From sequence record NC_052657.1: 64,000 nt of DNA, one strand, 5' to 3'. This document shows, in pieces, positions 5,833 through 53,734 of this stretch (its first letter is position 1; the number at the start of each line of letters is the position of its first letter). The notes below the pieces were generated by a model. It saw only the letters and a program-made list of their open reading frames with translations. It searched no databases and was not told where the DNA came from. The stretch comes from Escherichia phage muut. The translations under genes and the position numbers were made by a program.

Positions 5833-6659
5833 CAAAATTTTTAATCTTTGGTTCAAAAGGTCAATTAGGACAATCTTTGGCAAAAGTTGCACCAGAAGAT
5901 GTTATTTTGATTGAAGCAAGTGATATAGACATTACCAACTTTAAAGATGTTATGAATAGTCTTGTACAGCACGTGCCTGATGTTGTTGTGAATTGTGCGG
6001 CTTACACGGCAGTAGATAAAGCTGAAGAAGATGTTAACACCTGTATAAATGTTAATGCATACGGTGCAACAAACATTGCCAAAGCATGTAATGATTTACT
6101 GATACAGTTTGTACATATTTCAACAGACTATGTTTTTGATGGGCATGTTGCTGGCACAGAAGATAGTAAAACAAACCCCTTGAACACCTACGGTTACAGT
6201 AAACAATTAGGTGAAACTTTAGTACAAACAGTTTGTCCTACAGCACTTATTATCAGAACAGCTTCTGTTTATAGTGAATTTGGACATAACTTTTTGAAAA
6301 CTATGTTGGAACGCTACAACGGTGGTCAAAAAGAATTTAATGTAGTATGTGATCATTTATCATGTCCTACTTATGCACCTGATCTTGCAGAAACAATTTT
6401 TAAACTTGTAAAAGATGGTGTAAATAGTAAAATTGTACACTATGCAGGTGCAGATTATATTTCTTGGTATGATTTTGCACGAAAGATATTTCTTGTTATA
6501 GATTTATCTGTTACAGTTAATCCTGTATCTGCTTCAACCTATAATTCCAAAGCAGTCAGACCAGCAACATCTTATTTAAAAACAGATCCTACTTTAAATC
6601 CGCGAAGTGTTGATAGCGGTATTGTAAGAACTTTAACTATACTTTTAAACAAGGAGTGA
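5829..6659 (+). CDS. rmlD: dTDP-4-dehydrorhamnose reductase
   Basis: 276 aa; N-terminal FGSKGQLGQ Rossmann motif; last gene of rml operon order. Confidence 0.8.
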   Translation: MTKFLIFGSKGQLGQSLAKVAPEDVILIEASDIDITNFKDVMNSLVQHVPDVVVNCAAYTAVDKAEEDVNTCINVNAYGATNIAKACNDLLIQFVHISTDYVFDGHVAGTEDSKTNPLNTYGYSKQLGETLVQTVCPTALIIRTASVYSEFGHNFLKTMLERYNGGQKEFNVVCDHLSCPTYAPDLAETIFKLVKDGVNSKIVHYAGADYISWYDFARKIFLVIDLSVTVNPVSASTYNSKAVRPATSYLKTDPTLNPRSVDSGIVRTLTILLNKE

Positions 6660-7585: not shown

Positions 7586-7607
7586 AAAGGGGCGAAAGCC
7601 CCTTTTA
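7586..7607 (+). terminator. rho-independent terminator
   Basis: GGGGC-GAAA-GCCCC hairpin followed by TTTT. Confidence 0.6.
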
Positions 7608-7621
7608 TAAGGAGTGCAAAC

Positions 7622-8374
7622 ATGGGAAATAAAACCGCAAAGGCTCGTCGTCAATCAGCAGCCAATGATGACAAACGTGCCAGTCGTTATGCGGCTAAAG
7701 CAGTAGGAAATGATGATTACCGTCTTGATGAATTTACCCCTGTTGGGAATCAAGAAGCTATTGTAAGAAGCATGGTTTGGAATGATTTAACCATTGTTAA
7801 TGCCCCAGCAGGAACAGGAAAAACGACAACAGCACTATGGAAAGCATTGCAAATGCTTAAAGCTGGTGATTTCAGAAAGTTGATTTTCCTTAAAAACCCG
7901 ACAGAAGTAGGTGATGATCAAATTGGTTTCTTATCTGGAGATAAGACTGATAAACTAGCAGCACATTACGAATCAACTAAAAGAATTTTCCAACAGTTTA
8001 TGACTGCAAATAAATTGGAAAACGATATTGCAAGTGGCAAAATTGAACTTAATATTCCAAACTATGCACTAGGTGCTACGTGGGATAACAGCATTATTCT
8101 TATTGATGAAGTTCAACTTATGTCACCAAATACAGTAAAACTTCTCCTTGAGCGAGCAGGTCTTAATACACGTATTGTCATTATGGGTGATGTTAATCAA
8201 ACATATGCAATTAAACGAAGAGCTAATGGGTTAGGTGATTTGTTAGATCGTGTTGTTCCTATTAACGAAGAAGGAGAAAGGGAAGCTATTGTAGATTTTA
8301 TTGGTTATGTTGAAATGACAACTGCTGATAACCAACGTTCCCGTTTGTCTCAGTTCATCACGGAAGTATATTAA
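7622..8374 (+). CDS. phoH: PhoH-like ATPase
   Basis: 250 aa; Walker A GTGKTTTA; size and context as in T4-like phages. Confidence 0.85.
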   Translation: MGNKTAKARRQSAANDDKRASRYAAKAVGNDDYRLDEFTPVGNQEAIVRSMVWNDLTIVNAPAGTGKTTTALWKALQMLKAGDFRKLIFLKNPTEVGDDQIGFLSGDKTDKLAAHYESTKRIFQQFMTANKLENDIASGKIELNIPNYALGATWDNSIILIDEVQLMSPNTVKLLLERAGLNTRIVIMGDVNQTYAIKRRANGLGDLLDRVVPINEEGEREAIVDFIGYVEMTTADNQRSRLSQFITEVY

Positions 8375-8410
8375 TAATTACAAGGCAAGGATGCCTGTTA
8401 TGGAGGTTAA

Positions 8411-8902
8411 ATGACGCTAATTGAGATTGATCGCAATGGTATTGATGAATGCTATCAAGCTGGCTTAGTTAAGCCGAATGAGTTTAGACAGATTTATATT
8501 GACAAGATTGAAAAAGAAATATCTCTTCGTTTAGAGAACATGGCAACTTTGCAAAAAGTTCAGATGTTTTTTAGTTGGTTGAAAGGAGAGGATTGGCTAA
8601 CTAAATATTACCAGGAATTATCTGATAGTCAAGAAGGCTTGTTTGAGTGTATAATAAATGTAGCTGGGTCTAATTCAGAGTTACTCCTGATTGATGAAGA
8701 AGATTCTAAACTTCTTTTTCTTAGCAGTATTTTTCACAAGAAATCTATGTTAGTAAGAAATTGCAGTGATTTACTAAATCATCCACTAACAAGAACTAAT
8801 AAAATTCTTGTGGATAAAGAAACACTAAGAGCTATTGATTACCTCCGTAAATATGTAAGCGGTGGTAAAGCAGTCCTTAAAACACTACAGGAGGAAGTAT
8901 AA
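8411..8902 (+). CDS. hypothetical protein (163 aa)
   Basis: GGAGG RBS; no motif recognised. Confidence 0.5.
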   Translation: MTLIEIDRNGIDECYQAGLVKPNEFRQIYIDKIEKEISLRLENMATLQKVQMFFSWLKGEDWLTKYYQELSDSQEGLFECIINVAGSNSELLLIDEEDSKLLFLSSIFHKKSMLVRNCSDLLNHPLTRTNKILVDKETLRAIDYLRKYVSGGKAVLKTLQEEV

Positions 8903-9555
8903 TGACAACAATTATTGCAACACGTAACAAAATTTTGTCTGACGGTAAGGTAACAGTAGGTAGTCGTGTAGACACTTTAAACTTCAAGAAAGTGCGTAAA
9001 ATTGGGGACTACCTTGTTGGTGGTGCAGGACGTCTGTCTTCTATCCTGACTTTCTTTTCTTGGTTTGAACAAAACTTACAATGCCAGGCAGCACAAGAGA
9101 CAATCCCAGGTTTGGTGATCCAGTCAGATCCCGATAAAGAAGATGAAGAGTTTGTGGCATTGGTTGTTCATCCAGACGGTAAAATTTATATGCACGAGGG
9201 TAATAATCCAACGCGAGCATATCCTTTAACTGAAGATTATTATGCTGTTGGTAGTGGGGCAGATTTTGCTTTAGCAGCTTTAGATGCAGGGGCAACTCCA
9301 GAAGAAGCGATGGAAGTTGCAAAACTGCGAGATGCTTTTTCCGGCGGTGAAACTTTTATCGAAGAGATCGAAGAACAACTGGAGTTAACAGCGGAAGATA
9401 TTCTGAACTTCAGCAAGGAGCAACTAATTAGTATGCTGTTGACTGGTGATCCTGATAGCGATGAAGCTGAAAGTATTTTAGCAGAAATGAAAGAATCACA
9501 AGAAAAAGTATTGACAGTCTCTGAAAAACTTGATAAAGTGTCCTCTGATAATTAA
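8902..9555 (+). CDS. HslV/proteasome-beta-like peptidase
   Basis: N-terminal MTTII (Thr nucleophile after Met), GG.G and AVGSGADFALAAL segments. Confidence 0.5.
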   Translation: MTTIIATRNKILSDGKVTVGSRVDTLNFKKVRKIGDYLVGGAGRLSSILTFFSWFEQNLQCQAAQETIPGLVIQSDPDKEDEEFVALVVHPDGKIYMHEGNNPTRAYPLTEDYYAVGSGADFALAALDAGATPEEAMEVAKLRDAFSGGETFIEEIEEQLELTAEDILNFSKEQLISMLLTGDPDSDEAESILAEMKESQEKVLTVSEKLDKVSSDN

Positions 9556-9565
9556 TCTAGTATAA

Positions 9566-9585
9566 ACCCCCTCAAGGGGGTTATT
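9566..9585 (+). terminator. terminator-like hairpin
   Basis: CCCCCT-CAA-GGGGG hairpin then TTATT; directly before next RBS. Confidence 0.35.
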
Positions 9586-9595
9586 AGGAGGAGAT

Positions 9596-10024
9596 ATGTT
9601 ACCAGTACCTGTAACCTTTGTAGAAAAAGCCTACTACTCTTTAGAACAAAACTGTAAAAGAGCTAAAAATTTTATTGAAAGTTTAGCAGAACAGCGTTAC
9701 ACTGTATCTAAAAAGGGATGGTTCAGAACTTCACAATATTCAGTCAACCCTTTCGGAGAAGTTCGTGTGTTGTACGGCAACACAGAAAATATCTTAGAAA
9801 GAATGTTAGAACTAGATAGGATCTCCTCCTGTGATTATCAACTGTTGAAATTTTACGATGTGTCAGAAAACATTAAAAACTTTCTTGACGATTTATGTAA
9901 ACGAAAAACAGAAGAAGATACAATACCAGTATCTATGGAAGAATTAACGTTCTTAAGAGATATTATGGTTTTTGAAGAAAACCCTGAAATCACAAAAGAG
10001 GAGATTTTAAGTAGTGGCAAATAA
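9596..10024 (+). CDS. hypothetical protein (142 aa)
   Basis: GGAGG RBS; no motif recognised. Confidence 0.5.
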   Translation: MLPVPVTFVEKAYYSLEQNCKRAKNFIESLAEQRYTVSKKGWFRTSQYSVNPFGEVRVLYGNTENILERMLELDRISSCDYQLLKFYDVSENIKNFLDDLCKRKTEEDTIPVSMEELTFLRDIMVFEENPEITKEEILSSGK

Positions 10025-10523
10025 GTATGATCGTCCACCAACTGATTACTATCCTACTCCACAAAAATGTATAAATGCATTATTTAGTGTAATAGATTTT
10101 AATAACCTTAAAGAAGAAGGTTTTATTTTTGCAGAACCGTGTAAAGGCGCTGCTGCTGCAATTTATCAACATTTTCCAGAAGGATCAGAATATTGTGAGT
10201 TAGAAGAAGGGAAGGATTATTTTAACCACGAATGGCATACTAAGCCGGATATTATAATCACAAATCCACCATTCAGACTTGCACTTGAGTTCTTGCAAAA
10301 GAGCTTAAAAGAAGCAGACGTTTGCATATACTTGTTGCGTCTTGGGTTCCTAGAGTCTATTAAACGAAGGGAATTCCATAAACAGAACCCACCAACAAAT
10401 TTGATTGTTCTTTCTGAACGACCATCTTTTGTTGCAGGTGGTACTGATAAGACAGCATATGCTTGGTACGTCTACGACCCAAAAAACAGGCTGGGTTTAA
10501 CTCAACCTTTCTATTTTGTTTAA
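10014..10523 (+). CDS. dam: DNA N6-adenine methyltransferase (small phage Dam type)
   Basis: 169 aa; IITNPPF motif IV; YYPTP N-terminal segment. Confidence 0.6.
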   Translation: MANKYDRPPTDYYPTPQKCINALFSVIDFNNLKEEGFIFAEPCKGAAAAIYQHFPEGSEYCELEEGKDYFNHEWHTKPDIIITNPPFRLALEFLQKSLKEADVCIYLLRLGFLESIKRREFHKQNPPTNLIVLSERPSFVAGGTDKTAYAWYVYDPKNRLGLTQPFYFV

Positions 10524-10536
10524 GAGGAGCATTTTT

Positions 10537-10767
10537 ATGACCGAGAAATTTATTGTTACTATGGAACTCACCTTTGATGAAGAAGATTTTGATCTTCACG
10601 TATCAACTAAAGCAGATAACATTCACACGACACAGAGTGTTGCAATCGCTATGTTCTTTAAGCAAGCAATTGCAAAACAAGCTGAAGTGTGTGCTGGTTT
10701 AGCTGTAGAGTACGCAGAAGTTGTCAAGGTTCTTGAAAGTGCTCGCAACAACGATTGGGATGAATAA
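10537..10767 (+). CDS. hypothetical protein (76 aa)
   Basis: ATG with AAGAGGAG RBS 21 nt inside ORF-track ORF. Confidence 0.45.
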   Translation: MTEKFIVTMELTFDEEDFDLHVSTKADNIHTTQSVAIAMFFKQAIAKQAEVCAGLAVEYAEVVKVLESARNNDWDE

Positions 10768-10970
10768 TGGCATACAATTACTATCTGGTATATTTTAACG
10801 AAACTAAGAAAAAAGACACAGGAACTAATGTTTATGCGGAATCGGAAGAACACGCAAAAGCTATTGGTTCAGTGCTTCTTTCTAGAATAGCAGGTGAAGA
10901 AATTCCTGTAGAGGCTATCTTTGCAGAAGTTGACCCTGGTATTCAAGAAGATGATATTACCACTACTTAA
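10767..10970 (+). CDS. hypothetical protein (67 aa)
   Basis: ATGA overlap with previous gene. Confidence 0.45.
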   Translation: MAYNYYLVYFNETKKKDTGTNVYAESEEHAKAIGSVLLSRIAGEEIPVEAIFAEVDPGIQEDDITTT

Positions 10971-10973
10971 CTG

Positions 10974-11020
10974 TTGACTTTAACATTGAGGTAGTGCATA
11001 CTTCCTGTAACAGAACAGGA
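10974..11020 (+). promoter_or_regulatory. sigma70-like promoter plus 5' stem-loop
   Basis: TTGACT-17-CATACT, then TCCTGT-AACAGAA-ACAGGA hairpin, then GGAGGG RBS. Confidence 0.45.
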
Positions 11021-11027
11021 GGGTATT

Positions 11028-11690
11028 ATGAAGTTTGTACTGTATCATCGACTTTCTAAGAAGAAACAACAAGGCAACCAGTATGGTATAGAATCACAGG
11101 AAGCAGATATCCAACGCTTCCTGGATTCACAAGAAAATTATACTATTGTAGGTAGCTTTGCAGAGTTTTATTCTGGTAAAGGCGATTGGAAGCAACGTAG
11201 AGAGCTTGTAAAAGCTGTTAATCTTTGCAAAGAAACAGGTGCTACACTTGTTGTTGCTAAGGTTGACCGTCTTGGACGTAACACAGCTTCTGTTGCAACC
11301 TTGTTAGAGATGATTAATGTACGGATAGCCACTATGCCCTCCGCTGAAAATATGATAATAAATATTTTAGCAGTTCTGGCAGAAGAAGAGGCTCGTGCAA
11401 TATCTGATCGTGTTAAGAAGAGCCTTAAGGTAGCAAAAGCGAAGGGAACGCTTCTTGGTGCAGCAAACCCTAAATACAAAAGAACAGATTATACGAAAAC
11501 GGAAGAAGCAAAACGCTCAAAAGAGTTTGCACTTTCTTTAAAAGATTCTTTAGTTGCATACAGAGCTTGTAAAACGCCATATATGACGATTGCAAAGCAT
11601 CTGAATGAATCAGGAAAGAGAACTATTCGTGGGAGTTTGTTCGATGCCAAAGCGGTACAACGTCTTTGTGCAAAATTGAATATTAAATAA
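11028..11690 (+). CDS. serine recombinase (resolvase/invertase family)
   Basis: 220 aa; YHRLSKKKQ (catalytic Ser), SGKG...R, VVAKVDRLGRN motifs. Confidence 0.7.
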   Translation: MKFVLYHRLSKKKQQGNQYGIESQEADIQRFLDSQENYTIVGSFAEFYSGKGDWKQRRELVKAVNLCKETGATLVVAKVDRLGRNTASVATLLEMINVRIATMPSAENMIINILAVLAEEEARAISDRVKKSLKVAKAKGTLLGAANPKYKRTDYTKTEEAKRSKEFALSLKDSLVAYRACKTPYMTIAKHLNESGKRTIRGSLFDAKAVQRLCAKLNIK

Positions 11691-11699
11691 GGAGGAAAC

Positions 11700-11903
11700 A
11701 TGGCAGTTCAATCTTTTGAGGAGACTGTTAAAAAACAATTCCTATCGAAGCGAGCGATGGTTGAATTTTTGCATTTTCTCGAAGTAGATAGGGTACTTAT
11801 TGAGACTACACCAGATGGTAACTGGCAAGTCTCGTATATTGCCACCAGGCATATCGTAGACAGTACGAAAGAAGAAAATTCGGAAGTTACGGTTGCTAGT
11901 TAA
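11700..11903 (+). CDS. hypothetical protein (67 aa)
   Basis: GGAGG RBS. Confidence 0.45.
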   Translation: MAVQSFEETVKKQFLSKRAMVEFLHFLEVDRVLIETTPDGNWQVSYIATRHIVDSTKEENSEVTVAS

Positions 11904-11914
11904 AGGAGTTAAAT

Positions 11915-12487
11915 ATGCGTTTAGCTTTTAACGGGAAGATAAGCACAGCAAACATATTGTCAGCAGTAGGATTATTAGGTAAAAAATTCACACCTTTCAG
12001 TTTACCAGTTTGTGTAGATTTTGATCATGTGTTTGATATTAATAATCCTTCACGTTGTATCGCCAGAAGTAATATTGATAACCCAAGTGAAAATCTGTTT
12101 TATATTACTAAACCATCCCAAGCAATTTTGAATCAATGGGAAGCAGGTCTGATTAAACCAGGTAAATATTTTGCATTACTACCTTGTAAATCATTGGCTA
12201 TAGAGGACAGTCTAAACTATGCAAACAATCTTGTTGTTACAGCATTCATTGTCTCAGAAAAAGAAGAAACTGCGGCACTTGCAAATACTGTTAAATCTTT
12301 GTATGATGCTTTGGGTGTTACTTACACTACCTTCGTTTGTGAAGATATTCCACATTGCGTTGAATTTGTGGTGAATGGTGTAACTGTATGTCGTGTAGAA
12401 ACAACTCAAGACGAAGACGTTTTTATTACTGTAGCCGATGTAATATCTGAACCTGTGTTTAGCTACGCAGTTTCATTAACACATTAA
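11915..12487 (+). CDS. hypothetical protein (190 aa)
   Basis: AAGGAG RBS. Confidence 0.5.
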   Translation: MRLAFNGKISTANILSAVGLLGKKFTPFSLPVCVDFDHVFDINNPSRCIARSNIDNPSENLFYITKPSQAILNQWEAGLIKPGKYFALLPCKSLAIEDSLNYANNLVVTAFIVSEKEETAALANTVKSLYDALGVTYTTFVCEDIPHCVEFVVNGVTVCRVETTQDEDVFITVADVISEPVFSYAVSLTH

Positions 12488-12497
12488 GGAGAAGGGG

Positions 12498-12824
12498 ATG
12501 AAAATAACGACAGAACAGGCTTTAATAGACAAAGGAAGGGAAATCTTAGAAAGTCATTTGGAGGATATTCAAAGGACTCCAGGGTATCTCGGCTGGCGTA
12601 TACAAGAAGCCGTCGATTTTCTACCCCGTAAAAATAAAGAGATTGAAGTAAGATCTCTATTCCTCCTTGTTAAAGTAGATGGTGACGCTATATACAAAGA
12701 TGTAGCGTCTCACATTGAACAAATAGAAGAAAAAGCCTACAAAGAATTTGCAGATCTTGTTGTAGAACATAATATAGAAGGTAAAGTTAATATCTTTATA
12801 CTTATGGATTTTGAGGAGAGTTGA
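12498..12824 (+). CDS. hypothetical protein (108 aa)
   Basis: AAGGAG RBS. Confidence 0.5.
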   Translation: MKITTEQALIDKGREILESHLEDIQRTPGYLGWRIQEAVDFLPRKNKEIEVRSLFLLVKVDGDAIYKDVASHIEQIEEKAYKEFADLVVEHNIEGKVNIFILMDFEES

Positions 12825-13567
12825 TGCTAGTATATCAAGAAATTAGTGTAAAAGATGATCAAGACCTGTTTATTATTGGTGATTTACATGGTTGCTTTGA
12901 TTTGTACCAGAAAGGTGTTAATACTTTAGGTATCCGAGATCAAGATGTTGTTGTATCTTTAGGAGATCTTACAGATCGCGGCAAGCAGAATTTTCGTTGT
13001 GTTGTTGAATTCACCAGAAAGCTAAATCGTTATGGTATTCGTGGAAACCATGAAGATATGATGATTAAAGGGTTGCTAGAAGGTGATAGACGATATTACG
13101 AATGTTGGTTTCAGAACGGAGGCCATACAGTTCTAGACGAGTGTGGAGAAGAGGGTGCAACTGCTCTTGCTTTGATGCTAGAAGATTTACCTGTTGTACT
13201 TGTTGTCAATTATCGTAATATGAAACTAGGCTTTATTCACGGTGGTTATCCTTCAGTTTTGGAACATTTACCAGTGACAGAAGTTTTGCCATTTTGTTTG
13301 AATATGAATAAAGAGCAAGTTTCTCGATTCACAGAATCTTTAATGTGGGATCGTGATATGATAGATTGCGCCCTTGAAGGGATTCTTCTTCCTAGAGTTT
13401 CAGGAGTAGATTATGTATTTCACGGGCATTCTTATGTTCCTAAACCTGTAATTAGCAGTAATAGGGTATATATGGATACAGGATCTTGCTTCAATGGTAA
13501 TTTAACCTTTGCATATTTTGATGATACAAATACGTTACAATTTTATTCTACTTTAGAGGAGGACTAA
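12821..13567 (+). CDS. Ser/Thr protein phosphatase (PPP-family metallophosphatase)
   Basis: GDLHGCFD, GDLTDRG, GNHE signature motifs. Confidence 0.8.
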   Translation: MMLVYQEISVKDDQDLFIIGDLHGCFDLYQKGVNTLGIRDQDVVVSLGDLTDRGKQNFRCVVEFTRKLNRYGIRGNHEDMMIKGLLEGDRRYYECWFQNGGHTVLDECGEEGATALALMLEDLPVVLVVNYRNMKLGFIHGGYPSVLEHLPVTEVLPFCLNMNKEQVSRFTESLMWDRDMIDCALEGILLPRVSGVDYVFHGHSYVPKPVISSNRVYMDTGSCFNGNLTFAYFDDTNTLQFYSTLEED

Positions 13568-13887
13568 TGTATAAAGTCACAATTAAAGAGACGGTAGGGA
13601 ATATTACGAAAGAAACTACTATTGAAACGGAAGACGTTGAGTTAGTCAAAGAGCTTTTATTTCCAAAATCAGAAATAAAAGATAATGACGAACAGTTGGA
13701 TGAAGATAACGATACAGCAAGGGATAAATGGAAGAAACAACTAGCGGAGATTTGGAAAAAGCCTCAAGTAACGCCTCCATTTGATCCTCGTACACCTTAT
13801 AGTCCTTGGGAAATTGGAAGCCCTTGGTTTACGTACCCTATTACTCCAATTGTTACTCCCAGTATTATTCCCAATATTACTTGTTAA
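13567..13887 (+). CDS. hypothetical protein (106 aa)
   Basis: ATGA overlap with phosphatase gene. Confidence 0.45.
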   Translation: MYKVTIKETVGNITKETTIETEDVELVKELLFPKSEIKDNDEQLDEDNDTARDKWKKQLAEIWKKPQVTPPFDPRTPYSPWEIGSPWFTYPITPIVTPSIIPNITC

Positions 13888-13897
13888 GGAGAAAACC

Positions 13898-14476
13898 ATG
13901 AGCGATTTATTCTACACAGGTGTTGGTAGTAGAGATATTACAGACGAAGAATGGGACACTATGGTAGCTGTTGCAAAATGGTTATCTACATGGTTCATTT
14001 TGCGATCTGGTAAAGCAGAAGGTGCAGATTCCGCATTTGAATGCGGGGTATATGATAGTGGAAACAATACAAAGAAAGAAATATACATTCCTTGGCCTTC
14101 GTTTAAAGGTAATGAGATAGATGGAGAGGTTATTGTTCTTGACAGACCAGATAGTGTAAACTATGCTCTAACCTTGCAATATGCAAAAGAATTGCATCCA
14201 GCTTGGGACAGATTATCTCAAGGTGCTAAAAAATTACATCAAAGAAATATCCACCAAGTTCTTGGAAGAGATCTTGAGAATCCAAAACCATCTTGTTTTC
14301 TTTTAGCTTGTGCAAATACAGATAAAAATGGAGATCCTTTAGGTGGTACAAGAACAGCTTGGATGTTGGCTAAAAAGTTTAATGTTCCTTGTTTTAATAT
14401 TCGAGGTAAAAGTAAAAAACAAATTTTCGAATTTATTAAGCCTATTTTAGAGGAGAATGGTCTTGTCCAGAAATAA
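13898..14476 (+). CDS. DprA/Smf-like (SLOG-fold) protein
   Basis: ATG with AAGGAGA RBS at 13898; GVGSRD...SGKAEGADSAFE and RNIHQVLG segments resemble DprA Rossmann domain. Confidence 0.45.
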   Translation: MSDLFYTGVGSRDITDEEWDTMVAVAKWLSTWFILRSGKAEGADSAFECGVYDSGNNTKKEIYIPWPSFKGNEIDGEVIVLDRPDSVNYALTLQYAKELHPAWDRLSQGAKKLHQRNIHQVLGRDLENPKPSCFLLACANTDKNGDPLGGTRTAWMLAKKFNVPCFNIRGKSKKQIFEFIKPILEENGLVQK

Positions 14477-14981
14477 TATAAGCATCATTAAAGATAGCTT
14501 TATTGATGTAACAAACGATATTGTACCTACAATACAATATATAGTTGAGGCACAAGGTTTAAACTTTATACGTGATAAAGTTAAGATTGTTTTTCATAAC
14601 ACTCCAGGTTTTGTAACAGTAGGTTCAACAAAAACGCCGTGCTCTACAGATCTGATTACTTTAGACAAAAACTTAACACAAGAAGAAGTAGAAATTCTTA
14701 ACCTCTATTGGCTAGGTTTTAAAAGATATGAGGATACAGCTTTATCCCGAATGTCAACTATTTTAGCTAACATTCTAGTTCGGAAAATTTCTAAACTATG
14801 GGATGAAGAAAACCCAGATGAAATAGTTTTACACTTTGCTAAACCGGAAGACGGGGCATATGATATAGACACATCTGAAATGGCTTATGGGTTTATTATT
14901 TCTGGTAATGTATTACAGATGGAATCTTTATTGTATGTTGAGACAGTAAAACACAATAACAACTACGAGGAGGTTGTATGA
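14457..14981 (+). CDS. hypothetical protein (174 aa)
   Basis: ORF overlapping previous stop. Confidence 0.5.
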   Translation: MVLSRNNISIIKDSFIDVTNDIVPTIQYIVEAQGLNFIRDKVKIVFHNTPGFVTVGSTKTPCSTDLITLDKNLTQEEVEILNLYWLGFKRYEDTALSRMSTILANILVRKISKLWDEENPDEIVLHFAKPEDGAYDIDTSEMAYGFIISGNVLQMESLLYVETVKHNNNYEEVV

Positions 14982-15235
14982 AAGGTTTAGAGTTTAACTT
15001 TGTAGATGCGTGGGAAGGATGGGATGAACTAGGAGTAGGGGATTTATGTTTTTATGATGTTACCTTGAAGGAAGAATACAAACATCTAGCCCCTAGTGAA
15101 GATTGCGATGTGATTCTATCTATTCTATTAAGTCAGTCTATAGTGCAATTTGATTTTCTAAAAGGTAGTGAGTGTATTGAAAGTAAAGCATTCCGTTTAG
15201 AAGTTTCTCTTGGTGAAGAAGTTCCTGTAGAATAA
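14978..15235 (+). CDS. hypothetical protein (85 aa)
   Basis: ATGA overlap. Confidence 0.5.
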   Translation: MKGLEFNFVDAWEGWDELGVGDLCFYDVTLKEEYKHLAPSEDCDVILSILLSQSIVQFDFLKGSECIESKAFRLEVSLGEEVPVE

Positions 15236-15238
15236 TAT

Positions 15239-15261
15239 AAACCCGCTTCAGCGGGTTTTTT
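15239..15261 (+). terminator. rho-independent terminator
   Basis: AAACCCGC-TTCA-GCGGGTTT followed by TTTT. Confidence 0.65.
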
Positions 15262-15262
15262 G

Positions 15263-15291
15263 TTGACAACACCAGTTTTTTCGAATAAACT
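15263..15291 (+). promoter_or_regulatory. sigma70-like promoter
   Basis: TTGACA-17-TAAACT immediately after terminator. Confidence 0.45.
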
Positions 15292-15320
15292 ACAGAAAAA
15301 CAGAAGAGGAGAAGATTAGC

Positions 15321-17512: not shown

Positions 17513-18046
17513 ATGGGTTTTGATGACATGTTATTATATGAGGAGGCTTGTGTGAAAGAAGCTATGGCTTTACCAGTTTTATCTATTGATATTACAACAG
17601 TAGACACTTTTTCAGATTGTGAAACGTGTGGATCGTATTCGTCTATTGTACATGAAGTTAGTGGGGATTTAGGCACTTACGAAGATGGAGATTATGCAAG
17701 TTGTTTAGGTGATAATCGAGATGGTGAAGTGGCGAATGTTGCAAACTGGATTGCTTCTAAGTTAAAAGAAAGAAATCGTCCGTTCCCTAATCTTCTTACA
17801 CCAGAAGCTATGCTTAAAGCTGAACAAGAGATGTATGATTATGGTTATAAAGTAGATTATGACTATAATGATCCTAAATATAAAAAATTGAGTGACAAGT
17901 ATTGGGAACTAGCTAATGCTTATGATAAATACTACTCTACAGAAAACATTGTTAAATTGTTTTTAGATTTTGGAGTAGAAATTAATTGGGATTTCGAAGA
18001 GGAAGAGCGTTACGACGCATCTTCTTGGGAGGACGAGGGTGAATGA
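17513..18046 (+). CDS. hypothetical acidic protein (177 aa)
   Basis: ATG with GGAGGA RBS 15 nt inside ORF-track ORF. Confidence 0.5.
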   Translation: MGFDDMLLYEEACVKEAMALPVLSIDITTVDTFSDCETCGSYSSIVHEVSGDLGTYEDGDYASCLGDNRDGEVANVANWIASKLKERNRPFPNLLTPEAMLKAEQEMYDYGYKVDYDYNDPKYKKLSDKYWELANAYDKYYSTENIVKLFLDFGVEINWDFEEEERYDASSWEDEGE

Positions 18047-18783
18047 TAGAACGAAAACCCTTACCAGATAGAGATTACTTGTTATCAAGGTTTAGTGTGG
18101 AGAATGGTCGTCTTGTTTGGAAACCTAAACCTTCTACAACAAAAGAGAACAAAAGGTGGAATAGCAGATACGCAGGGAAGATTGCAGGGACTATTGATAA
18201 AGCTGGTTACTCTCATGTCAAAATAGATGGTATTGTATACTTGGAGCACAGAGTTTGTTTTAAAATGTATCATAATTACTGTCCAGATGTTATAGACCAT
18301 GATGACGGCAATAAACTTAATAATGCGGAAAGTAATTTATTGGATAGTAACTATTTATTAAATAATAACAATAGACACGTGGATGGGTTAGAAGGTATTT
18401 ATGAAAAGGATGGTGTTTTTCTTTGGGTTATAAACTACAACCAAGAAACTTTCTCTGTTTCAGGTTTCAAAACTAAAGAGGAAGCTATTGTAGCTAGAGC
18501 TTTAGCAAAACAAGAAATTTTGAAAGGATCTTATATCAAAAAAGAAAAGAAGCGTATAGATAACACTTCAGGATTAAGCTGTGTGTTTGTGGCAACAAGA
18601 GAGAGAACATTCTTTTTCAAGTTTGTGTTTGACAAGATCACGTATTGCAAATATGGTTTCAACGATCCAGAGAGATGTGCTATAGCTCTGGAGAAACTAA
18701 GATTGAAGGTGATGAAAGAAAAATATAAACCTGCAAATAAAAGCATTTGCGAAAAATATAAGGAGGAGATTTATGCCGCGTAG
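18043..18783 (+). CDS. HNH homing endonuclease with AP2-type DNA-binding domains
   Basis: GY..V.IDG..YLEHRV...IDHDDGNKLNN HNH_3 pattern; two AP2-like repeats. Confidence 0.55.
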   Translation: MIERKPLPDRDYLLSRFSVENGRLVWKPKPSTTKENKRWNSRYAGKIAGTIDKAGYSHVKIDGIVYLEHRVCFKMYHNYCPDVIDHDDGNKLNNAESNLLDSNYLLNNNNRHVDGLEGIYEKDGVFLWVINYNQETFSVSGFKTKEEAIVARALAKQEILKGSYIKKEKKRIDNTSGLSCVFVATRERTFFFKFVFDKITYCKYGFNDPERCAIALEKLRLKVMKEKYKPANKSICEKYKEEIYAA

Positions 18784-19588
18784 AGTCATATTCATAACTG
18801 GTGCAGGACTATCTGTGGATAGCGGTATCCCAGCTTTTAGAACAGATACTTCTTCAGGGAAGGCGTTATGGTCTTCTTATGATCTTTTTGAGGTCTGTGA
18901 CATTTTCAACTTCCGTGACGGTTATCAGCAAGAACAAGGTGTTCTTGATGCTATGGGTGGTTTAGATGCAGAAGGATATAACCTCTACCGTAAAACTCAC
19001 GACTTTTACAATAAACGTCGCGTGGAATTAGAGAAAGTTGACCCGAATCCAGCACATCTTCAGATTGGAGAATGGTTCAAAAAATATGGCCCAGAACGAA
19101 TTATTAACATTACTACTAACGTGGATGACCTCCTTGAACGAGCAGGAGTAGATAGGGAAGAAGTGCTACATGTGCACGGTTTTCTTCCTGAAATTACTTT
19201 TCAAAGAAAAGCTGGACAACCTACAATTGTAAAAGATGTTGGTTATCAAGCCATAGATGTAGATGACTACCATTATGTAAAACCTAATGTAATTTTCTTT
19301 GGGGAAGCTGCTCCACTTTACACGGATATGTATCATATTTTTGATACTTTGACCATGCAAGATTTGGTTGTTGTAGTAGGATGTTCAAACCAAGTTATCA
19401 ATTTTAATTGGGAATTATTCCCTGCACTTAATATGGGTACAAAAATGATCGTTGTTAACCCAGGAATTAATTACGAAGAAACTCTTCTTTACGAAGACAG
19501 AGGAGTTTTTGTTTATCGAGAAAAGGCCGCAGATGCTTTTAGCAATCCTGCTTTCATAAAAATGATAGAAGATCATTTGACTAAGTAA
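18773..19588 (+). CDS. Sir2-family NAD-dependent deacylase/ADP-ribosyltransferase-like protein
   Basis: ITGAGLSVDSGIPAFR, ITTNVDDLLERAG, VVVGCS motifs. Confidence 0.75.
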   Translation: MPRRVIFITGAGLSVDSGIPAFRTDTSSGKALWSSYDLFEVCDIFNFRDGYQQEQGVLDAMGGLDAEGYNLYRKTHDFYNKRRVELEKVDPNPAHLQIGEWFKKYGPERIINITTNVDDLLERAGVDREEVLHVHGFLPEITFQRKAGQPTIVKDVGYQAIDVDDYHYVKPNVIFFGEAAPLYTDMYHIFDTLTMQDLVVVVGCSNQVINFNWELFPALNMGTKMIVVNPGINYEETLLYEDRGVFVYREKAADAFSNPAFIKMIEDHLTK

Positions 19589-19889: not shown

Positions 19890-19956
19890 AACCTCCTGTA
19901 ACGCATTCTAACGCACTTTTTATTTTAGTAATACGTTTCCCTATCTAATGCAAACA

Positions 19957-19991
19957 AAAGCCCCTAGAATCACTTCTAGGGGTTTTATTTT
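19957..19991. terminator. bidirectional terminator at convergence of rightward and leftward blocks
   Basis: CCCCTAGAA-TCAC-TTCTAGGGG hairpin flanked by A-run and T-run. Confidence 0.45.
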
Positions 19992-20064
19992 AGTCTTCTG
20001 TAAAATATCCTATGACAACAATGATAAAGATGATTAACACTACGATACTCTCTAGTAAAGTCAT

Positions 20065-20286
20065 CTATAGATCTCGTTCATATAATTCAATTATCAATTC
20101 ATCCTCTGCTGTTATCGTACCAATTTGCCAAGTATGAAGATAAACCTCTGTATAAGAGTGTATCTTACTATCTAACAAGCACAACCACGTATTGTTGCTT
20201 ACCTTTTCTTGAATATGAACCTTAACCACGAAAGGGTGAGGGTTATCTACTAAGAAACCAATACTACCTTCTACAACTACAGACAT
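20065..20286 (-). CDS. hypothetical protein (73 aa)
   Basis: AGGAGG RBS. Confidence 0.5.
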   Translation of the reverse strand: MSVVVEGSIGFLVDNPHPFVVKVHIQEKVSNNTWLCLLDSKIHSYTEVYLHTWQIGTITAEDELIIELYERDL

Positions 20287-20332
20287 AATACCTCCTATTG
20301 TTTATGCTAAGACAAATAAAAACACACATACA

Positions 20333-20358
20333 AGAAAACCCGCCGAAGCGGGTTTATG
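20333..20358 (-). terminator. rho-independent terminator
   Basis: AAACCCGC-TTCG-GCGGGTTT then TTCTTG on minus strand. Confidence 0.5.
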
Positions 20359-20360
20359 TG

Positions 20361-20684
20361 TTATACAATGTGTTTTGTTTTAACGTGCGAAGATTTAAAA
20401 ATCTTATTATGTAATGAAATACAACTATCACGGAACACATAGTAGTTAACAACATCTGGTTTATCAACACAGAGTGTAGCCACAACTTTCATAGGTATAG
20501 ATACATTCTCACGAAGAGTAACACTACCTTTCAAACGTTCAGATGAAATGTGAATCAAACCTTCTTTTTCATCAATGATAACTTCTTTAACATTTTTGAA
20601 ATTATAACAAGAGTTGTCAACATAAGATACCCTTGCTTTTGTTTGCTTCTGTTTAGGACGAGAACCAGTGTTTATTTTTTGCAT
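20361..20684 (-). CDS. hypothetical protein (107 aa)
   Basis: AAGGA RBS. Confidence 0.5.
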   Translation of the reverse strand: MQKINTGSRPKQKQTKARVSYVDNSCYNFKNVKEVIIDEKEGLIHISSERLKGSVTLRENVSIPMKVVATLCVDKPDVVNYYVFRDSCISLHNKIFKSSHVKTKHIV

Positions 20685-53245: not shown

Positions 53246-53564
53246 CATATGGGGTAGAATGGGCGAAGACCATGATTACTATTGTTTGAAAAGTAATGTT
53301 GAACAGACAGATGTTGATAAAATCATAAAGCACTACCTGAAAACATGGCGTGAAGTGGAGTTTAGAGAGTTTGCTATCCTCCATAGTCAAGAAGGAGAAA
53401 AGGAGATAGACATGAGTACACTAACTAAAGCAGTACAAACGCATAAAGAATATGAGGAAGCAGTTAAAGATGAAGTAAACCACGAGGATCAACTATACAA
53501 AGATATAAAGAGTGGTTGTGGGAACAAATTCGTTGTGGTAAAATCACTCTTGAGGGTTTGTTAG
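53232..53564 (+). CDS. hypothetical protein (110 aa)
   Basis: AAGGA RBS. Confidence 0.5.
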   Translation: MIMYSIWGRMGEDHDYYCLKSNVEQTDVDKIIKHYLKTWREVEFREFAILHSQEGEKEIDMSTLTKAVQTHKEYEEAVKDEVNHEDQLYKDIKSGCGNKFVVVKSLLRVC

Positions 53565-53734
53565 AATTAGAAGGGAAAGACTTAGTTTGCTTCTGCGCAC
53601 CTCAACCTTGTCATGGTGATGTGTTGGTAGCAGCGGTTGCTTGGGCTAGAACAGAGTGGGATAAAAGGCATCCTACTTACACAGATGATTATTGGATTTG
53701 GGAGGATATTTATGAAGACTACACAAGAAATTAA
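53516..53734 (+). CDS. hypothetical protein (72 aa), doubtful
   Basis: Overlaps both neighbours; non-ATG start. Confidence 0.3.
   Translation: MWEQIRCGKITLEGLLELEGKDLVCFCAPQPCHGDVLVAAVAWARTEWDKRHPTYTDDYWIWEDIYEDYTRN

Follow-up and report, generated by a model that had tools for sequence, protein, structure and literature searches.

A lambda-type protein phosphatase gene and a "DprA-like" SLOG gene in one accessory block of a phi92-like coliphage

The window analysed here is a stretch of 64,000 nucleotides (nt) from Escherichia phage muut (NC_052657.1), and the two genes in question lie close together in it on the plus strand (Table 1). One encodes a phosphatase of the phosphoprotein phosphatase (PPP) family, the ortholog of gp049 of phage phi92. 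The other encodes a protein with a SLOG fold, the ortholog of phi92 gp047. We use the phi92 names for the window proteins throughout. An initial annotation had described a PPP phosphatase and a DprA/SLOG-like Rossmann protein in one operon. Both are present on the plus strand, essentially where it placed them, with a single gene (gp048) between them.

The window is that of a phi92-like coliphage, genus Justusliebigvirus, subfamily Stephanstirmvirinae. The region 11900-15300 has a full-length identity of 98.1-99.3% to 54 GenBank phage records, which include phi92, Paula, Eryne and the BASEL phages PaulScherrer and EmilieFrey. The phi92 proteins gp049 and gp047 share 98-100% identity with their window orthologs, the gene order gp050-gp049-gp048-gp047-gp046 is common to both phages, and neither gene shows a relevant difference. 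The RefSeq entry of phi92 uses identical product names for both genes, as do dozens of relatives. Both had been annotated before in GenBank and in PHROGs, and they are accessory, ordinary genes. All coordinates are those of the window, obtained for the loci L001 and L002 by adding 5899.

Table 1. Features of the phosphatase and SLOG genes and of their surroundings, in window coordinates.
Feature	Position	Strand	Basis or remark
PPP phosphatase, lambda-phosphatase (NinI)-type, Ser/Thr(/Tyr), 247 amino acids, phi92 gp049 ortholog	12824-13567	+	Pfam, PHROG, PDB, NCBIfam, GenBank
Phosphatase motif I, GDLHG (G19-D20-L21-H22-G23)	12878-12892	+	sequence; opposite GDLHG of lambda phosphatase
Phosphatase motif II, GDLTDRG (residues 47-53; D48, R52)	12962-12982	+	opposite GDLVDRG of 1G5B
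Phosphatase motif III, GNHE (residues 74-77; N75, H76)	13043-13054	+	opposite GNHE of 1G5B
Phosphatase downstream residues H139 (IHGG), R177 (WDRD), H202 (GHS)	13238-13429	+	1G5B alignment
SLOG-fold protein, single-domain, 192 amino acids, phi92 gp047 ortholog, PHROG 768 "DprA-like"	13898-14476	+	
gp047 loop G10-S11-R12 after strand 1	13925-13933	+	invariant in 36 homologs; aligns to DprA GSR (HpDprA R52)
gp047 loop R36-S37-G38-K-A40-E-G42-A-D44	14003-14029	+	invariant; aligns to DprA SGxAxGxD
gp047 H114-Q-R116-N117, helix 108-122	14237-14248	+	listed as invariant; putative equivalent of DprA F-x-x-R-N-R (HpDprA R143) by manual reading
gp047 glycine-rich loop G149-G150-T151	14342-14350	+	invariant; aligned to DprA SGS; no LOG-type catalytic Glu after it
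gp048 ortholog, 106 amino acids	13567-13887	+	PHROG 15301, 3.5e-54
Hairpin terminator, upstream edge of the putative unit	7586-7605	- (scan)	scan on minus strand only; Paula annotation has terminators on both strands at the matching place
Strong bidirectional terminator, AAACCCGCTTCAGCGGGTTT then T run, after gp045, downstream edge of the putative unit	15239-15258	both	scan and Paula annotation
Sir2-family gene, next transcription unit	18773-19588	+	Pfam SIR2 3e-20, PHROG 2162 1.2e-98

The phosphatase's open reading frame (ORF) ends at 13567 and may start at 12821 (TTG) or 12824 (ATG). The annotated ATG at 12824 is the likely start; it overlaps the stop codon of the gene upstream (TGATG), and a GAGGAG ribosome-binding site precedes it by 5 nt. 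Residues are numbered from this ATG. The protein matches Pfam Metallophos (E=2.9e-13, 51.1 bits, above the 21.5 cutoff), PHROG 246 "NinI-like serine-threonine phosphatase" (E=1.5e-75) and the lambda phosphatase structure 1G5B (E=2.2e-29, residues 4-231). These matches are far beyond chance and the motifs GDLHG, GDLTDRG and GNHE are the right ones, so that this part of the initial annotation stands.

Homology to lambda phosphatase (NinI) is full-length, at about 30% identity. The GDxHG, GDxxDRG and GNHE motifs, the two downstream histidines and the arginine are all kept, and H139, R177 and H202 sit opposite H139, R162 and H186 of the lambda enzyme in the 1G5B alignment. By the roles of the lambda residues, we take the positions of D20, H22, H139 and H202 to be metal ligands and that of R177 to be the phosphate-binding arginine. 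The two proteins differ in the segment from H139 to R177, which is about 25 residues longer in gp049, and in their setting, with gp049 in an accessory block of a virulent myophage and ninI in the lambdoid nin region. The nearest NCBIfam models are PrpA (5e-27) and PrpB (1e-23). The scores, 95 and 84 bits, are far below the equivalog cutoffs of 326 and 332 bits, and therefore gp049 is not an equivalog of Escherichia coli PrpA or PrpB. Judged from its sequence, gp049 is a binuclear-metal PPP phosphatase of the lambda-phosphatase/PrpA/PrpB type with all catalytic residues intact. Because every one of these is conserved, activity on phospho-Ser/Thr/Tyr proteins of the host or of the phage is very likely. 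A literature search for phage phosphatases with an anti-defence role gave nothing usable, and the accessory-gene preprint of Silas et al. mentions neither the phosphatase nor the SLOG genes.

Next, for the SLOG gene, the real start is the ATG at 13898. An AAGGAG ribosome-binding site lies 6 nt ahead of this codon, and the annotations of phi92 and Paula begin the gene here too. The longer reading from 13781 (TTG) is an artefact whose first 39 codons overlap gp048. With the start corrected in this way, the DprA/SLOG-like Rossmann protein of the initial annotation is also borne out. It matches PHROG 768, "DprA-like DNA recombination-mediator protein", with E=2e-60, and finds no match in Pfam (E<=0.1), NCBIfam or PADLOC. 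A direct sequence search of PDB with gp047 returned only NSA2, by chance. The AlphaFold2 model has a pLDDT (predicted local distance difference test) of 96.7 and a pTM (predicted template modelling score) of 0.92, and forms one alpha/beta domain. The fold is Rossmannoid, and glycine-rich loops that follow strands 1, 2 and 4 form a nucleotide/phosphate pocket, as expected for a SLOG protein; the fold is also that of the Rossmann-like DprA domain. Among 36 homologs the residues G10-S11-R12, R36-S37-G38-x-A40-x-G42-x-D44, W66, F69, H100, H114, R116-N117, Q120, S132 and G149-G150-T151 are invariant. The pocket that they line (GSR, RSGxAxGxD, PW..F, HPAW, LHxRN and GGT) would be the phosphate/ribose-binding site of the superfamily.

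We compared gp047 with DprA/Smf (PF02481; 3MAJ, 3UQZ, 4LJK) and with the antitoxin ShosA (8ZVA). Matches to PF02481 are weak (E<=1) in 30 of the 36 relatives, the best at 3.6e-6, and the handful of bit scores available for members of the family stay under the 29.6-bit cutoff. The gp047 protein itself has no match to the DprA models PF02481 or TIGR00732. When the family profile was set against an alignment of five DprA domains, hhalign gave a probability of 75.6% (E=2.4e-5), over 46 N-terminal columns only, from GSR to SGxAxGxD. For the C-terminal half, where RNR would be mapped, global and local hhalign alignments were of low confidence and conflicted with the secondary structure, and we rejected them. 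The single-stranded DNA (ssDNA) contacts of HpDprA are R52, R143 and R170 (ShosA paper, PMC12961424). R12 of gp047 aligns to the first. R116 corresponds to the second by manual motif reading, which hhalign did not reproduce. The position of the third is M156 in gp047, by manual mapping and the GGT-to-SGS alignment, and is not conserved. Thus, compared with DprA/Smf, gp047 is one domain of 192 amino acids without the SAM and winged-helix domains, its C-terminal half does not align by profile methods, and conservation is missing at one of the three ssDNA arginines. On these comparisons gp047 is not a bona fide DprA, since it reaches the threshold of no DprA model and the other DprA domains are absent. 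We would place it in the DprA clade as a stand-alone SLOG domain rather than count it as a tested DprA family member.

As for other SLOG clades, the LOG phosphoribohydrolases carry PGGxGTxxE with a catalytic Glu, whereas gp047 has LGGTRTAWMLA with no Glu, and the LOG Pfam model matches none of the 36 family members. The Moco carrier protein and the SLOG domain of ThsA likewise stand for other clades, and LDcluster4 is touched by only 2 of the 36 relatives. A further comparison is ORF83 ("Smf/DprA") of PhiDruSM1, the deletion of which sensitises the phage to Avs type III (10.1101/2024.04.14.589459) and which is predicted to bind AMP (10.1101/2025.06.06.658234). Found through the deletion-primer sequence at PP596835.1 56640-57032, it is a YAcAr-family SLOG protein of 130 amino acids (Pfam YAcAr 1.6e-18, PHROG 289). 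Like gp047, ORF83 is a small stand-alone phage SLOG protein first labelled "Smf/DprA", the motif order G-x-R, xGxAxGxD, PW, RN, GG(x)T is common to both, and both have relatives fused to DUF4326. They differ in family (PHROG 289 versus PHROG 768) and in length (130 versus 192 amino acids). The hhalign match of the gp047 family to ORF83 is marginal (probability 10%, E=0.003), and PF10686 (YAcAr) has no match in the gp047 family. Since ORF83 belongs to a different family, its anti-Avs3 phenotype is not transferable to gp047.

In terms of gene arrangement, the 16 genes from PhoH (7622) to gp045 (15235) all run in one direction, and the gaps that separate them never exceed 57 nt. At several junctions, 12822-12826 and 13565-13569 among them, a stop codon overlaps a start codon. 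Strong hairpin terminators bound this block only at its two edges, and none is found between the phosphatase and the SLOG gene; terminator-like sites number 18, against 7.5+/-3.0 in shuffles. Co-transcription is plausible because the genes are co-directional, tightly packed and bounded by terminators, and the two genes are probably co-transcribed in a 16-gene unit at about 7606-15258. Of the operon proposed in the initial annotation, the shared orientation and the tight gene block are observed, while the operon itself is plausible. The contents of the block are mixed: PhoH, an HslV-like peptidase, methyltransferase(s), a resolvase, unknowns, the phosphatase and the SLOG protein. The sole gene between the latter two, gp048, has a start that overlaps the phosphatase stop (TAATG). 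Its product is acidic in the N-terminal part and Pro/Trp-rich in the C-terminal part, and gave no match in Pfam and NCBIfam searches.

Both genes had been called unusual in phages, and this does not hold. By tblastn against 50,697 phage records, the phosphatase is found in 1,326, including lambdoid, T5-like, Vibrio and jumbo phages. The SLOG protein is found in 1,469 (about 3%), in Pakpunavirus, rV5/PVP-SE1-like phages, several T4-like genera, T5-like Vibrio phages and jumbo phages. Each protein has its own PHROG and a name already in GenBank, and the archetype of PHROG 246 is NinI of phage lambda itself. The lambda gene ninI and the P1 gene ppp behave as accessory genes that the phages can do without (PMC10695390). 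The SLOG-family profile found 5,997 clusters at 50% identity among 1.84 billion representative proteins, and PHROG 768 is, by these searches, a very large family carried mainly by mobile elements. In phage 9g, which like PhiDruSM1 belongs to the Queuovirinae, no gp047 homolog was found within the first 50 kilobases (kb) of the 56.7-kb genome.

Where a product name is given for members of PHROG 768, it is usually a DprA-like mediator or a close variant. One of these gene models, in Pseudomonas phage JG005 (L087, PP712940.1, 6001-6576), has its "DprA-like" coding sequence annotated from locus position 6178, with homology from 6001. The GenBank model appears N-terminally truncated, with the GSR motif lost. 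The adjoining Macro-domain gene is annotated there as "phosphatase".

In bacterial genomes, gp047 homologs were found at only 57 loci, nearly all of them multi-copy elements in Alphaproteobacteria and metagenome-assembled genomes (MAGs) of Ca. Binatia. Their neighbours were identified by targeted phmmer searches and Pfam checks. The integrative element concerned (L090-L146; e.g. L112 2577-10668 and L097 5141-9821) reaches up to about 14 fetched loci per MAG assembly. In some copies it further includes a YAcAr protein, an integrase and a reverse transcriptase of the group II intron type, and two gene orders occur.

The function of gp047 can be approached through the domains fused to its relatives. 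NADAR is fused to the close relatives P0129 and P0218. Two large proteins, P0121 (1475 amino acids) and P0122 (1488 amino acids), combine gp047-like, YAcAr and LDcluster4 SLOG domains with a C-terminal NADAR, and may be polyvalent proteins that process nucleotides or ADP-ribose. DUF4326 is fused to four relatives (P0074, P0177, P0195, P0207). The remaining partners are PHROG 2072 and PHROG 9995, with no assigned function. SAM, winged-helix or recombinase domains were not found in any of these fusions. The PHROG 2072 domain is C-terminal in P0194, P0199 and P0255, carries the motif VFVFGSNxxGxHGxGAA...YAIPT and has no Pfam match. A 72-amino-acid ORF of the window (53516-53731, plus strand) aligns with Pfam DUF4326 (7.7e-9) over the final 30 positions of the model only and may be a truncated or frameshifted copy.

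Gene neighbourhoods were taken from 80 viral contigs with gp047 homologs and 10-kb flanks, searched with the window proteins, and grouping at 60% SLOG-protein identity gave 36 lineages. Contigs of the Pakpunavirus type have the gene order Prs-like, NAMPT-like, x, Macro, x, SLOG. Pairs of Prs/NAMPT-like (Adps/Namat-like) genes occur in other arrangements in L021, L036 and L051, and in Slopekvirus NAMPT lies 1.4 kb downstream of the SLOG gene. A stand-alone NADAR gene is next to the SLOG gene in L056 and L073, and a DUF4326 gene in L057. At least one gene linked to NAD or ADP-ribose lies within 10 kb in 15 of the 36 lineages. In phi92-like phages, the Sir2 gene is kept 3-6 kb from the SLOG gene in all 12 contigs, on either strand. 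In DarTG systems, the NADAR and Macro domains are the hydrolases that free guanine and thymine in ssDNA of ADP-ribose (PMC11543638). Operons annotated as Prs and Nampt are NARP1, a pathway of NAD+ reconstitution that together with NARP2 is present in 5.4% of phages (10.1101/2024.02.11.579819).

On the balance of fusions and neighbours, an ADP-ribose/NAD-linked role of gp047 has a little less than an even chance. We lean towards it because fusions are the stronger kind of evidence and none involves recombination domains. The ligand would be related to ADP-ribose or NAD, either a free NAD-derived nucleotide or ADP-ribosylated ssDNA. The protein would then serve counter-defence or the NAD+ economy of the phage, and not classical RecA loading. 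The whole explanation, to which we give slightly better than even odds, is that the window holds two independent, already annotated accessory genes in one probable transcription block, a standard phosphatase and a likely ADP-ribose/NAD-related gp047, that would form no functional pair.

Alternatives for the phosphatase, and for the two genes together, have little in their favour. A nucleotide substrate such as Ap4A, as for diadenosine tetraphosphatases of the ApaH/PrpE type, or a polynucleotide phosphatase, in place of phosphoproteins, is very improbable. Weak matches point that way, to PrpE (2e-9), ApaH (8.7e-9), the Pnkp phosphatase domain (3.4e-6) and the Trypanosoma Ap4A hydrolase 2QJC (4.9e-7). 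However, ApaH-type matches are limited to the N-terminal 60-120 residues, whereas those to lambda phosphatase and PrpA/PrpB are far stronger and full-length, including the C-terminal half. The initial annotation had also suggested that the phosphatase may reverse kinase-based defence signalling of the host and that the SLOG protein may bind ssDNA or nucleotide signals, and these two ligands are also the ones between which we weigh gp047. To a functional counter-defence module of the two, in which the phosphatase reverses a kinase signal and the SLOG protein binds the linked nucleotide signal or ssDNA, we give hardly any chance. The genes do share one strand, with one gene between them, overlapping stop and start codons and a terminator-free interval. 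This arrangement is kept across Stephanstirmvirinae-like contigs down to 62% SLOG identity, and a phosphatase lies within 10 kb at five further, non-phi92-like loci. Yet it lies that close in only 18 of the 80 loci, 13 of which are phi92-like with identical synteny, and in 6 of the 36 lineages, so it is absent within 10 kb in 62 loci and 30 lineages. The T5-like Vibrio phage Achelous has both genes 50 kb apart, and contigs of the rV5/PVP-SE1-like group have the SLOG gene after PhoH instead. The phosphatase occurs without SLOG in T5-like and lambdoid phages, and the reverse is true of Pakpunavirus, rV5-like and T4-like phages. No phosphatase-SLOG fusion was seen among gp047 relatives, and with methyltransferases, a resolvase, PhoH and HslV in it, the block gives the impression of a mixed set of accessory genes. 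The adjacency is confined to phi92-like phages and a few others and reflects synteny within lineages, not a conserved module.

For gp047, a true minimal DprA-type mediator would bind phage ssDNA via the GSR and RN arginines and hand it to host RecA or a phage recombinase, or would protect replication or recombination intermediates. We consider this rather unlikely, though several observations that favour it weigh against the ADP-ribose/NAD explanation. By sequence comparison, the nearest family of gp047 is the Rossmann-like domain of DprA, R12 is opposite an ssDNA-contacting arginine of DprA, and R116-N117 plausibly match RNR. DprA and ShosA bind ssDNA and RecA (PMC12961424), and a mediator role was proposed in a jumbo-phage survey (PMC7824862). 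In 53 of the 57 bacterial loci a single-stranded DNA-binding protein (SSB) gene lies on the SLOG strand, usually as the next gene, and these loci also have a DUF7146-Toprim protein, a Strawberry-notch-type helicase and often an integrase. In Achelous the SLOG gene sits between two NAD-dependent DNA ligase genes of the replication module, and in Thalassavirus it is likewise inside the replication module. The SSB/Toprim and replication-module contexts fit a DNA role. To these are added weaknesses within the ADP-ribose/NAD evidence. Phi92-like phages have no NADAR, Macro or NARP1 gene beside gp047, only Sir2 3-6 kb away, and the DUF4326 of the window is a fragment 40 kb from gp047. Neighbourhood statistics are inflated by the clustering of accessory genes in large phages, and several NARP1-linked lineages are related to each other. 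On the side of transcription, co-transcription is plausible from the sequence alone, and the promoter scan was not above chance (63 sites versus 54.6+/-7.1) and was left unused.

Against the mediator stand the lack of any PF02481 or TIGR00732 match in gp047 itself, with an hhalign match restricted to the 46 N-terminal columns, the absence of SAM and winged-helix domains, and the lack of a conserved counterpart to the third of the ssDNA arginines (Hp R170). The family also occurs in T4-like phages, which own a mediator already, UvsY. It is found fused to NADAR, DUF4326 and other SLOG domains but to no recombination domain. Moreover, 55 of the 57 bacterial loci fall in one 50%-identity cluster, and therefore the bacterial context amounts to about one independent observation. 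Recognition of ADP-ribosylated ssDNA by gp047 would reconcile the NAD and the DNA evidence, which is speculation.

Some other features of the window and its relatives deserve mention. Further downstream, the window has an extra gene, for an HNH endonuclease, at 18043-18783 (plus strand; PHROG 99, 3e-34), between the gp039 ortholog and the Sir2 gene. It is missing from phi92, Paula and the closest IMG/VR contigs, where gp039 adjoins Sir2. It looks like an insertion of about 730 nt and is probably a homing endonuclease. Upstream, the gp051 ortholog (11915-12487, plus strand, 190 amino acids) bears the name "histidyl tRNA synthetase" via PHROG 4806 (3.7e-60). Pfam and NCBIfam give this name no support, and it is probably an annotation artefact. 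Near 20 kb (about 19900-20400), the guanine-cytosine (GC) skew and gene orientation flip from plus to minus, and several bidirectional terminators (19957-19986, 20336-20355) mark the meeting point of two converging transcription blocks. Finally, four unannotated records labelled as phages of Campylobacter jejuni (MG065639, MG065645, MG065656 and MG065689; "Campylobacter phage" A150, A145, C3 and A110a) have 98.5% identity to the window region and encode a gp047 that is 100% identical to that of the window. Their assignment to a Campylobacter host looks doubtful.

Lastly, in terms of meaning, the finding as such is ordinary, and the function of gp047 is its only new angle. The label "DprA-like recombination mediator", common in a family that some 1,470 phage records match, rests on weak similarity in the N-terminal half. 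It is possible, and we put it forward tentatively, that PHROG 768 is an ADP-ribose-centred SLOG module that binds or processes NAD-derived nucleotides or ADP-ribosylated ssDNA, associated with NADAR, Macro, DUF4326 and NAD+ reconstitution, and a widespread, unrecognised counter-defence against DarTG-type or NAD+-depleting immunity and not a RecA loader. ADP-ribose and NAD biology is at present one of the main fields on which phages and bacterial immunity contend. If the ADP-ribose reading is true, a large phage protein family would be renamed, and a counter-defence candidate would be added that is directly testable in BASEL-collection phages of the genus Justusliebigvirus.

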